Positions 14,425 through 17,513 of a stretch of 64,000 nt of DNA are shown here, piece by piece. The stretch lies in assembly GCF_058153355.1 (NCBI RefSeq), contig NZ_CM177019.1; one strand, given 5' to 3'. Below the pieces are notes generated by a model. The model saw only the letters and a program-made list of their open reading frames with translations, was not told where the DNA came from and ran no database searches. Made by a program: the position numbers and the translations under genes. Position 1 is the first letter of the stretch, and every line of letters starts with the position of its first letter.

Positions 14425-15798
14425 TTATTTTAATAACCGCACCCGGCACGTTTTTCCTTTAATTTTACCGCCCTGTAACTGTTTCCATGCTTTATGAGCA
14501 ACAGCCTGACGCACCGCGACATAGACATGCGCCGGATGCACGGCGATTTTGCCAATATCTGCGCCATCAAGCCCGATATCTCCTGTCAGCGCACCTAATA
14601 CATCACCCGGGCGCATTTTGGCTTTTTTCCCGCCATCGATACATAACGTTGCCATTTCTGCTTCCAGCGGCACAATGGAACTATTAACTGGCGGCGTTTG
14701 CCAGTTAAGTTTTATCTGCAACATGTCAGAAATGATATTGGCCCGCTGTGCTTCTTCCGGGGCACAGAAACTGATCGCCAGACCGCTATTTCCTGCACGC
14801 GCTGTACGCCCGATGCGATGTACATGAACTTCAGGGTCCCACGCCAGTTCAAAGTTCACTACCAGCTCAAGCGATTTAATATCAAGACCACGCGCAGCAA
14901 CATCCGTCGCAACCAGCACACGAGCGCTACCGTTAGCAAAACGTACCAGGGTCTGATCGCGGTCACGTTGCTCCAGATCGCCATGTAACGACAATGCACT
15001 TTGCCCTATGTCATTCAGCGCGTCGCAGACAGCCTGACAATCTTTTTTGGTATTGCAAAACACCACGCAAGAGGATGGCTGATGCAAACTTAATAACCGT
15101 TGCAACAGCGGAATTTTGCCTTTGCTGGATGTCTCATAAAATTGTTGTTCAATGGGAGGCAGAGCATCTGTTGAGTCAATTTCAATCGCCAATGGATCGC
15201 GTTGAACTCGTCCGCTGATTGCGGTGATGGCTTCCGGCCAGGTTGCCGAAAACAGAAGCGTCTGTCGAGATGCTGGCGCAAAACGGATAACATCATCAAT
15301 GGCATCGCTAAATCCCATATCCAGCATGCGATCGGCTTCATCCATCACCAGCATATTCAACGCATCCAGTGATACCGTGCCTTTTTGCAGATGGTCCAGC
15401 AAACGCCCCGGGGTTGCCACGATAATATGCGGCGCATGTTGCAACGAATCACGCTGCATACCGAACGGTTGACCACCGCACAAAGTCAAAATTTTGGTAT
15501 TTGGCAGAAAACGCGCCAGCCGACGCAATTCACCTGCCACCTGATCCGCCAGTTCACGCGTAGGGCACAGCACTAAAGCCTGGGTCTGAAATAGCGACGC
15601 ATCAACTTTCTGTAGCAGCCCGAGGCCAAAAGCCGCCGTTTTGCCGCTGCCGGTTTTCGCCTGCACGCGAACATCTTTTCCGGCAAGGATCGCCGGAAGC
15701 GCGGCAGCCTGCACCGGCGTCATAGTTAAATAACCCAACTCATTAAGGTTCGTGAGTTGGGCGGGAGGCAAAACATTCAGGGTAGAAAAAGCGGTCAC
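14425..15798 (-). CDS. dbpA: ATP-dependent RNA helicase DbpA (457 aa, GTG start)
   Basis: DEAD-box motifs AKTGSGKT, VMDEADRM, SAT; C-terminal RNA-binding domain. Confidence 0.9.
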   Translation of the reverse strand: MTAFSTLNVLPPAQLTNLNELGYLTMTPVQAAALPAILAGKDVRVQAKTGSGKTAAFGLGLLQKVDASLFQTQALVLCPTRELADQVAGELRRLARFLPNTKILTLCGGQPFGMQRDSLQHAPHIIVATPGRLLDHLQKGTVSLDALNMLVMDEADRMLDMGFSDAIDDVIRFAPASRQTLLFSATWPEAITAISGRVQRDPLAIEIDSTDALPPIEQQFYETSSKGKIPLLQRLLSLHQPSSCVVFCNTKKDCQAVCDALNDIGQSALSLHGDLEQRDRDQTLVRFANGSARVLVATDVAARGLDIKSLELVVNFELAWDPEVHVHRIGRTARAGNSGLAISFCAPEEAQRANIISDMLQIKLNWQTPPVNSSIVPLEAEMATLCIDGGKKAKMRPGDVLGALTGDIGLDGADIGKIAVHPAHVYVAVRQAVAHKAWKQLQGGKIKGKTCRVRLLK

Positions 15799-15828
15799 AA
15801 TCTGTTCTCGTGGTCATCGACGCAAAAA

Positions 15829-16002
15829 TTAGCAAGCGCGTATCCTCGCAGATCTACGCTCACGATGCGACAATTTAATCGGTTCTTCATCGGGTGGTGG
15901 GTCAGGCATGGGTTGCGGGCGAGGGATTGGATCGGGCACTGGAACAGGATCGCCAGGAATCGGTTCAGGGACAGGAATTTGCAAATAAATGAGTGTCGTC
16001 AT
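15829..16002 (-). CDS. hypothetical proline-rich small protein (57 aa)
   Basis: strong SD GGAGGG 6 nt upstream of ATG; translation MTTLIYLQIPVPEPIPGDPVPVPDPIPRPQPMPDPPPDEEPIKLSHRERRSARIRAC; between FnrS terminator and dbpA start; below the 60-aa ORF track threshold. Confidence 0.4.
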   Translation of the reverse strand: MTTLIYLQIPVPEPIPGDPVPVPDPIPRPQPMPDPPPDEEPIKLSHRERRSARIRAC

Positions 16003-16060
16003 ATTTCCCTCCGGTCATTGGGTGGACTCTTAAAGGGTAGACGCTGATATATAACAGGCA

Positions 16061-16181
16061 AAAAAAAGCCGACTCATCAAAGTCGGCGTCGTACGAATCA
16101 ATTGTGCTATGCAGTAATTCAAAAAAGGAAGTAAGACAATATGGAGCGCAACGCCCATCGCTTGACGTTGCATTCACCTGC
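16061..16181 (-). ncRNA. fnrS: FnrS sRNA (FNR-activated, anaerobic)
   Basis: reverse complement reads GCAGGTGAATGCAACGTCAAGCGATGGGCGTTGCGCTCCATATTGTCTTACTTCCTTTTTTGAATTACTGCATAGCACAATTGATTCGTACGACGCCGACTTTGATGAGTCGGCTTTTTTTT; zntB-dbpA intergenic location as in K-12. Confidence 0.85.
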
Positions 16182-16216
16182 AAGAGAGATATTGCCCTGA
16201 ATGGGTAGAGAGTTTA

Positions 16217-16230
16217 TTGACTTCGCTCAA
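16217..16230 (-). promoter_or_regulatory. FNR binding site upstream of fnrS
   Basis: TTGAGCGAAGTCAA (TTGAT-N4-ATCAA class) centred about 42 bp upstream of the inferred FnrS 5' end. Confidence 0.65.
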
Positions 16231-16276
16231 ACTTTGCGGCGTTTTTGTATACAGACCGCCGGAAAAATTGCTTTTG

Positions 16277-17281
<1,005 letters not shown>

Positions 17282-17513
17282 TTATTTTGTAGTCTAGCCT
17301 TCTGGCCCTGTTACGCAACATCTCATCACCCCATTACCCTGAAATGATTAATAAAATTCTGTCTAAATTGAATACAAAAAGCAAAATGCTTTTCCATATA
17401 CAAACCGTGTGAAGTGTTAAATAGCGTCTATCATTATCAGAATTATCTGATCATATGACGTGGCTTTTTGCGATCGGATAGCAACAAAAATTGATAAAAA
17501 TAACGGGATCTCA

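Follow-up and report, generated by a model that had tools for sequence, protein, structure and literature searches.

Between the small RNA FnrS and the helicase gene dbpA stands an open reading frame (ORF) for a proline-rich peptide, and this locus raises the question of whether the ORF is a regulatory leader peptide for dbpA or a genuine small protein, both of which had been proposed from the sequence. We addressed this question in a 64,000-nt stretch of DNA (the window) and in related loci. We hold with good, though not complete, confidence that the ORF is ynaL, a genuine, translated and independently expressed small-protein gene of the zntB–fnrS neighbourhood, with a core that is selected and a tail that is the dbpA promoter, and that it is not the leader peptide of the main dbpA mRNA. 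The features of the locus, from FnrS to dbpA, are:

16064..16181, minus strand: FnrS sRNA (Rfam RF01796, 134.8 bits)
16068..16087, minus strand: intrinsic terminator hairpin of FnrS, followed by a T-run (terminator scan)
16034..16061, minus strand: putative ynaL promoter, predicted (conserved spacing, Erwinia counterpart)
16056..16061, minus strand: putative ynaL −35, TTGCCT, with a 16-nt spacer to the −10
16034..16039, minus strand: putative ynaL −10, TACCCT, with the transcription start site (TSS) expected near 16027
16007..16012, minus strand: ynaL Shine-Dalgarno (SD), GGAGGG (sequence reading)
15829..16002, minus strand: ynaL CDS, 57 codons plus TAA (ORF list, RefSeq, Pfam, K-12)
15955..16002, minus strand: variable N-terminal segment of ynaL, codons 1–16 (dN/dS, alignment)
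15868..15954, minus strand: acidic Pro-rich core of ynaL, G17..S45, GDPVPVPDPIPRPQPMPDPPPDEEPIKLS (codon entropy, dN/dS)
15889..15903, minus strand: polyproline motif DPPPD, codons 34–38 (sequence reading)
15832..15867, minus strand: C-terminal tail of ynaL, codons 46–57, HRERRSARIRAC (low dN and low dS)
15833..15873, minus strand: dbpA promoter inside the 3′ end of ynaL (K-12 TSS, conservation)
15868..15873, minus strand: dbpA −35-like hexamer, TTGTCG
15849..15850, minus strand: TG of the dbpA extended −10
15842..15847, minus strand: dbpA −10, GAGGAT
15834..15841, minus strand: 8-nt GC-rich discriminator of the dbpA promoter
15833, minus strand: G equivalent to the dbpA TSS, in the Cys57 codon (TGC) of ynaL (K-12 TSS mapping)
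15805..15809, minus strand: dbpA SD-like GAGAA (CGAGA block conserved in the alignment)
14425..15798, minus strand: dbpA CDS, GTG start, 457 aa

The ORF between fnrS and dbpA is the known gene ynaL

The ORF has 57 codons and runs on the minus strand from an ATG (16002..16000) to a TAA (15831..15829), and the coordinates 15829..16002 and the exact translation given by the original prediction both match the window. The GGAGGG sequence, described as a well-placed SD, sits 4 nt before the ATG. The placing of FnrS upstream on the same strand, with a terminator in between, was borne out by the Rfam match (16064..16181) and the terminator (16068..16087), and the gap of 30 nt from the end of the TAA at 15829 to the dbpA GTG at 15798 was also correct; this spacer is 29 nt in K-12, the window having one extra T. 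ORF length alone is not above chance, as the same 2.8-kb stretch holds 50 ORFs of at least 20 aa. We take the ORF as real because it is conserved (ATG, SD and open frame, with a coding signature), not because of its length.

The ORF had been called unannotated, which does not hold. It is ynaL in RefSeq, in the K-12 annotation and in Pfam, all three of which have carried the gene since about 2018. In K-12 MG1655, ynaL (b4743 / YP_009518775.1) occupies 1409308..1409481, between fnrS and dbpA, and the window product is identical to K-12 YnaL at all 57 aa. The Pfam family PF23677 ("Protein YnaL-like") matches residues 1–57 of 57 with 136.9 bits (E = 2.1e-40), compared with a gathering score of 27 bits, and the NCBI product name is "proline-rich small protein YnaL". 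The position is also that of the family: the ORF lies on the same strand as, and directly 3′ of, the fnrS terminator, likewise in 68 related loci. Megablast of the region gave matches in 5,392 of 5,426 complete E. coli genomes, and ynaL is annotated, as "(proline-rich small) protein YnaL", in all 30 records sampled along the megablast ranking. Judged by its sequence, the window is from a somewhat divergent E. coli lineage; its positions 15700..16300 share 99.7% identity with E. coli 2020CK-00188, whereas for nearly all of the remaining complete E. coli genomes the figure is only ∼97–98%.

The suggestion of a genuine small protein agrees with published experiments. VanOrsdel et al. (2018; PMC6001520) detected the SPA-tagged product of the identical 57-aa sequence, expressed from the chromosome, by immunoblot in LB cultures. 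Ribosome occupancy had been proposed as a check, and the same paper reports K-12 ynaL as an earlier, then unidentified, positive in a tetracycline ribosome-profiling screen. Our literature search returned no paper assigning YnaL a function, and ynaL is mentioned in neither the Weaver preprint nor the Salmonella small-protein census.

The core of YnaL is conserved as protein and its tail as DNA

Eighty loci were fetched with DbpA as the query, so that sampling was independent of ynaL, and Erwiniaceae loci were added. A Pro-rich ORF lies immediately 5′ of dbpA in 68 of the 80 loci, and all 68 ORFs have an ATG and a GGAGG-type SD, with the frame kept across indels. The small ORF (sORF) lies 49–65 nt 3′ of the FnrS terminator in every locus examined, in both Enterobacteriaceae and Erwiniaceae. 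The tests proposed earlier, conservation of the frame and a synonymous-versus-nonsynonymous comparison, thus both came out in favour of a coding gene (frame in 68/80 dbpA loci; core dN/dS 0.07).

Constraint differs along the ORF. The N-terminal zone (about codons 1–19) differs in length between genera and has a dN/dS of 0.52, by which measure the N-terminus is weakly constrained and nearly free to vary. Across the 29-codon core, entropy at codon positions 1, 2 and 3 was 0.24, 0.17 and 1.12, all four Pro codons are used, and synonymous variation also occurs at D, R, Q, E, I and V. The core dN/dS was 0.074 (dS 0.93), compared with 0.045 for the first 60 codons of dbpA, with dN biased downward because the core was located by its amino-acid pattern, which fits 68 of the 69 Pro-rich ORFs. 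On these codon statistics the core (DPxPxPDPIPRPQPMPDPPPDEEPIK) is under protein-level purifying selection comparable to that on dbpA.

In the tail (the last 11–12 codons), dN was 0.165 and dS 0.212, a five-fold depression of dS. Low dN together with low dS points to constraint on the DNA itself. The tail sequence is also retained 3′ of early stop codons in 12 lineages, in which a stop within the variable stretch makes the ORF end ...SHR or ...SR. By these comparisons the tail is conserved as DNA and not as protein. The "PIKLS" codons, however, are not purely promoter-derived: in locus L086, ...EEVPYKLSRV is retained with synonymous changes, and no dbpA promoter core follows it. The codons that serve the promoter alone are those past ...SHR.

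YnaL also varies in length, in frame, among relatives of E. coli (locus L005 and proteins P0001, P0088, P0112, P0053 and P0101): there is a 46-aa form in strain E69, a 68-aa form with an 11-residue duplication (DPVPVPDPIPR), and there are 46-aa and 42-aa deletions. YnaL of Salmonella and Citrobacter carries duplications. These variants are consistent with slippage among the repeats that encode DPxPxP. As to an origin of ynaL by internal tandem repetition, the sequence showed no more than a faint periodicity of 18 nt (72% identity) and a single 9-nt repeat. Rare clusters are frameshifted or read through (P0002, P0003, P0007, P0041, P0058, P0106 and P0110).

The dbpA promoter lies in the 3′ end of ynaL

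The K-12 dbpA TSS was mapped by Kim et al. (2012; PMC3415461, supplementary file 2) to 1407501 (v2; 1409477 in v3), with 126 reads and a 34-nt 5′ UTR, by TEX-enriched 5′-RACE sequencing of mid-exponential M9-glucose cultures. Its −50..+1 string, ACCGATTAAATTGTCGCATCGTGAGCGTAGATCTGCGAGGATACGCGCCTG, corresponds to the element at 15833..15873 of the window, and one discriminator base differs (ACGCGCTT in the window, ACGCGCCT in K-12). The TSS is about 8–9 nt 3′ of the −10 hexamer in TG-C-GAGGAT, as fits a mapped 5′ end of a sigma-70 promoter. The conservation has the same form, with fixed hexamers and discriminator and a variable spacer: from CCGATTAAA to the dbpA start, the alignment reads TTGTCGC, a 9-nt variable stretch and AGATCTG(C)GAGGATACGCGCC, at ≥90% per column. 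Cedecea, Dryocola, Siccibacter and Atlantibacter have ATGACC-17-TAGAAT/TAGACT/TAGCAT at the homologous position, and these outgroup dbpA promoters have TG before the −10 and a GC-rich discriminator after it. In five Kluyvera-group loci the promoter element is base-perfect (21/21 bases) and fnrS and dbpA are kept, with the Pro-rich ORF absent (L071, L073, L074, L076 and L080, at about 2380–2500 in each). The element is single-copy, with no second copy in the window or in E. coli genomes.

The tail of ynaL is therefore conserved over its last ∼11 codons only as DNA, because it is the dbpA promoter. Since the TSS is in the last sense codon of ynaL, the main dbpA mRNA does not contain ynaL. Other roles for the element were rejected. 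A mimic of 23S hairpin 92 for DbpA autoregulation is out, as the element is upstream of the TSS and so absent from dbpA mRNA; a sigma-54 promoter would have the GG-N10-GC spacing that is present, but there is no TGGCAC; a MerR-type long-spacer operator lacks a conserved dyad; and the outgroup sequences speak against an antisense promoter, being much closer to a promoter in the forward direction.

The dbpA promoter is TG-extended but has a poor −10 (GAGGAT), and its −35-like hexamer is at 20-nt spacing. By analogy, this geometry is like that of rRNA P1 promoters and hints that the gene of this ribosome-assembly helicase may be controlled by growth rate or ppGpp. The near-invariance of the promoter across genera exceeds what a simple sigma-70 promoter needs. 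In the dbpA leader (15799..15832, and the homologous region of L009–L070), the first 15–25 nt form a small hairpin followed by a T-run in several genera (GACTGTGAGTC-GTTT, GCTGATCTCAGC-CCTTTT and CATCTGACTGCAAAGATG); the sequences differ and the hairpin potential recurs. This hairpin could be a 5′-end stabiliser or an attenuator.

A similar layout is found nearby. The 15-aa sORF ynaN (K-12 b4773; 17274..17321, minus strand) lies just upstream of zntB, and in the row before fnrS in PMC3415461 the −50..+1 string, TGGGGTGATGAGATGTTGCGTAACAGGGCCAGAAGGCTAGACTACAAAATA, puts a TSS inside the last codons of ynaN. As with ynaL and dbpA, the promoter of the next gene is inside the 3′ end of the sORF.

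YnaL-like sORFs accompany fnrS in loci where dbpA is elsewhere

A profile search of 1.84 billion representative proteins returned only 34 hits, essentially all of them small ORFs. The divergent forms come from Phytobacter, Scandinavium, Mixta and Erwinia; they share ...SDPVPTDPVPxPDPIPxPQPxPDPP and end ...DPDPRPIxDPPPH(R/M). Gene orders around the sORF in these and related genera are:

Phytobacter, Mixta, 'Enterobacter sp. BIGb0383' and Scandinavium: zntB – fnrS – sORF – ttcA (convergent)
Erwinia: zntB – fnrS – sORF – ttcA – dbpA
Dryocola: fnrS – sORF – ttcA (convergent) – ... – dbpA

In seven other loci the sORF is followed by ttcA instead of dbpA, and the constant neighbour is therefore fnrS and not dbpA. 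In Erwinia locus L088 the sORF has a scan-positive promoter, an SD and an intrinsic terminator right after the stop codon, and with its own promoter and terminator it is therefore a monocistronic gene. With transcription directions, the orders compared are ynaL–ttcA(+)–dbpA(+) in Erwinia (L088, L089), ynaL–ttcA(−)–...–dbpA(+) in Dryocola (L075) and ynaL–dbpA(+)–ttcA(−) in the E. coli group. From these rearranged orders, it follows that dbpA and its promoter were fused to the 3′ end of ynaL only in core Enterobacteriaceae. In a neighbour-joining tree of the single gene product DbpA, Kluyvera is nested inside the ynaL-positive clade, and the absence of ynaL from Kluyvera is probably, if tentatively, a secondary loss.

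A putative ynaL promoter abuts the FnrS terminator

Between the FnrS terminator and the SD of ynaL, the window has TTGCCT-16-TACCCT. All but one of 65 loci have a spacer of exactly 16 nt, though its sequence varies, the TTG of the putative −35 is kept in 64 of 65, and the −10 variants (TACCCT, TACGCT, TACCTT and TATGCT) are all T-A-x-x-x-T. At the homologous position in both Erwinia loci (L088 and L089), the promoter scan finds TTGCCA-17-TATGCT, and with the ORF lost, the Kluyvera loci have a spacer shortened to 10 nt. On this pattern of conservation, ynaL probably has its own promoter at 16034..16061. The putative −10 matches the consensus at three of six positions, and the promoter scan of the window reported no promoter at threshold for this site. 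The Kim et al. (2012) dataset, from which minor upstream TSSs were filtered out, lists no TSS between fnrS and dbpA, and the TSS supplements of Adams 2021, Cappable-seq, SMRT-Cappable-seq and ROSE contain nothing for the ynaL locus. An anti-SD pairing of TACCCT with GGAGGGTA was rejected, as Klebsiella and Superficieibacter change one side without compensation and keep T-A-x-x-x-T.

We infer that a weak sigma-70 promoter of its own drives ynaL, possibly with a contribution from read-through of the FnrS terminator. The transcript would run through the dbpA promoter into dbpA, and such a ynaL–dbpA co-transcript may coexist with a shorter, dominant dbpA mRNA. VanOrsdel et al. (PMC6001520) also considered that ynaL might share an operon with dbpA.

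The product is predicted to be an extended acidic peptide

An AF2 model built on a 48-sequence alignment is an extended chain, with no helix or strand beyond residues 5–8. Its pLDDT exceeds 90 for roughly residues 21–40, which at a pTM of 0.22 is weak structural evidence for the Pro-rich segment. The model fits a polyproline-II rod rather than a fold, and YnaL has no relatives in the PDB. We propose that YnaL would be an acidic peptide of extended polyproline-II type and would work in trans, its most probable role being that of a ligand or spacer for another protein. The acidic PxP core would be the functional part, and the tail a by-product of reading into the dbpA promoter. The low dN/dS is compatible with a trans-acting peptide and with a nascent-chain (cis) function alike.

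A proline-rich tract also raises the question of EF-P. The run D34-P-P-P-D38 contains the strong-class polyproline motifs DPP, PPP and PPD, and DPPPD belongs to the strongest class of EF-P-dependent XPPX motifs. Of the 68 loci, 65 retain the codon for P36, 67 that for P37 and 64 that for D38, and divergent homologs also keep DPPP, near their C-terminus. The three-proline run is absent in four of the 68 loci (PSP in three and PPQ in one), with PPP changed to PSP in E. albertii and C. youngae. By analogy with such motifs, it is plausible that YnaL synthesis is EF-P-dependent because of DPPPD.

Alternative readings of the locus

The remaining form of the leader-peptide idea is that, on co-transcripts, the translation or transcription of dbpA is modulated by ribosomes that stall at DPPPD or that terminate 30 nt ahead of the weak RBS of dbpA; if this were true, a PTC-assembly helicase would be coupled to polyproline-synthesis capacity. 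DPPPD is largely conserved and its DPPP is kept in divergent homologs, co-transcripts are likely with only a weak 5-bp hairpin between ynaL and dbpA, and dbpA has a weak SD (GAGAA) and a GTG start. As a regulatory leader of dbpA, however, the ORF fails in location, in alternative structures and in co-occurrence with the regulated gene. The mapped TSS is inside the last sense codon of ynaL, 3′ of the last full codon, leaving a 34-nt leader without this ORF. The one terminator or alternative structure between sORF and dbpA is a hairpin of 5 bp with an 8-nt loop (15832..15849), made of invariant promoter bases, and ynaL mRNA is no more structured than shuffled sequence (MFE z = +0.99). Kluyvera has fnrS, the promoter and dbpA and no ORF, sORFs follow fnrS with ttcA next in Phytobacter, Mixta, Dryocola, Scandinavium and Erwinia, and dbpA is not adjacent in seven loci. 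The stop codon of the ORF lies anywhere from 14 to 63 nt before the start of dbpA, and PSP replaces PPP in E. albertii and C. youngae. We consider this reading very unlikely, and a leader peptide survives only as a minor possibility for longer co-transcripts. A second cis-acting reading makes the RNA itself the point: C-rich, G-poor, unstructured RNA would load Rho unless translated, so that ynaL translation sets how much upstream transcription (from fnrS, zntB or the ynaL promoter) reaches dbpA, with the peptide secondary. In 100 nt of sense RNA from the core, C makes up 42% and G 18%, and the region folds less stably than shuffles (the same z of +0.99), but C-richness follows automatically from Pro codons. 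Non-Pro residues (D, R, Q, M, E, I and K) are also conserved with synonymous variation, which the model does not need, and conservation of the sORF extends to loci in which a convergent gene comes next or in which the sORF has its own terminator; we consider a Rho shield highly improbable.

That the ORF is translated but functionless, its conservation coming from overlapping DNA or RNA elements or an antisense gene, is extremely improbable. The tail is indeed conserved as DNA only, and a 96-aa ORF lies antisense at 15757..16047 (plus strand), but third codon positions of the core vary freely and first and second positions do not (dN/dS 0.07), and the frame is kept across indels in 68 loci. The antisense ORF is itself not conserved, because its first codon positions coincide with the variable wobble positions of ynaL; it owes its existence to the Pro codons, as CCN gives NGG on the other strand, with few stops. 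If most expression of ynaL came from transcripts that read through the FnrS terminator, and so was controlled by FNR in anaerobiosis, the sRNA and the small protein would be parts of one response. The sORF follows the FnrS terminator at 49–65 nt in every locus examined and the Kim et al. (2012) dataset lists no separate ynaL TSS, but aerobic LB cultures did yield YnaL-SPA, the FnrS terminator, with an 8-bp stem and eight T's, is a strong one, the interval from terminator to SD contains a promoter-like signature of fixed spacing, and synteny alone is no proof of co-regulation; we regard this reading as unlikely. A broader proposal is similarly doubtful, namely that ynaL and fnrS form an ancient two-output module (Erwiniaceae to Escherichia), later wired to dbpA in the E. 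coli lineage by promoter fusion, in which the peptide works with the FNR-controlled sRNA in the aerobic/anaerobic switch or is an EF-P-gated reporter of polyproline-synthesis capacity.

As an independently expressed small-protein gene, ynaL stands out among enterobacterial genes for uncharacterised small proteins as one of the better conserved: dN/dS in its core, at 0.07, is as low as in its helicase neighbour. Some cautions follow for work on YnaL. Its C-terminal tail is promoter DNA and should not be read as a protein motif; tagging or deletion at the 3′ end of ynaL disrupts the dbpA promoter, so effects on dbpA need to be controlled for; and the leader-peptide idea is a poor starting hypothesis.

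Comparison with known systems

In Salmonella, the leaders of mgtCBR and mgtA contain the short ORFs MgtP and MgtL, which have consecutive Pro codons and a translation speed sensitive to proline or EF-P. These ORFs are part of the 5′ leader of the mRNA that they regulate, and they work by way of alternative stem-loops. Like them, ynaL is a short ORF with consecutive Pro codons upstream of a gene. In contrast, it is upstream of the main dbpA TSS, lacks such structures, has three times their length, conserves a long pattern of non-Pro residues and is also present where dbpA does not follow. With SecM and TnaC, which are upstream of a functionally related gene, ynaL shares small size and amino acids conserved over about 17–30 residues. 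It differs in that dbpA has its own promoter inside ynaL and in that the YnaL C-terminus is variable or dispensable; the conserved region of YnaL is acidic and polyproline-II-like, whereas SecM and TnaC have a tunnel-interacting motif with a defined arrest codon.

Among other proline-rich peptides, oncocin, Bac7 and apidaecin are also short and extended, but they are cationic (Arg/Pro) and, once imported, bind in the exit tunnel of the ribosome, whereas the YnaL core is strongly acidic; profile and PDB searches gave no sequence similarity of YnaL to proline-rich antimicrobial peptides. Homology to the Pro-rich spacer of TonB (PF16031 TonB_N; NF008084) was rejected as compositional bias only (20.8 bits against a cut-off of 315, and 11 bits against 33), and unlike TonB, YnaL has neither a membrane anchor nor a C-terminal domain. 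What YnaL shares with the TonB spacer is the alternation of X-Pro with acidic residues, for which an extended, rigid rod is expected.
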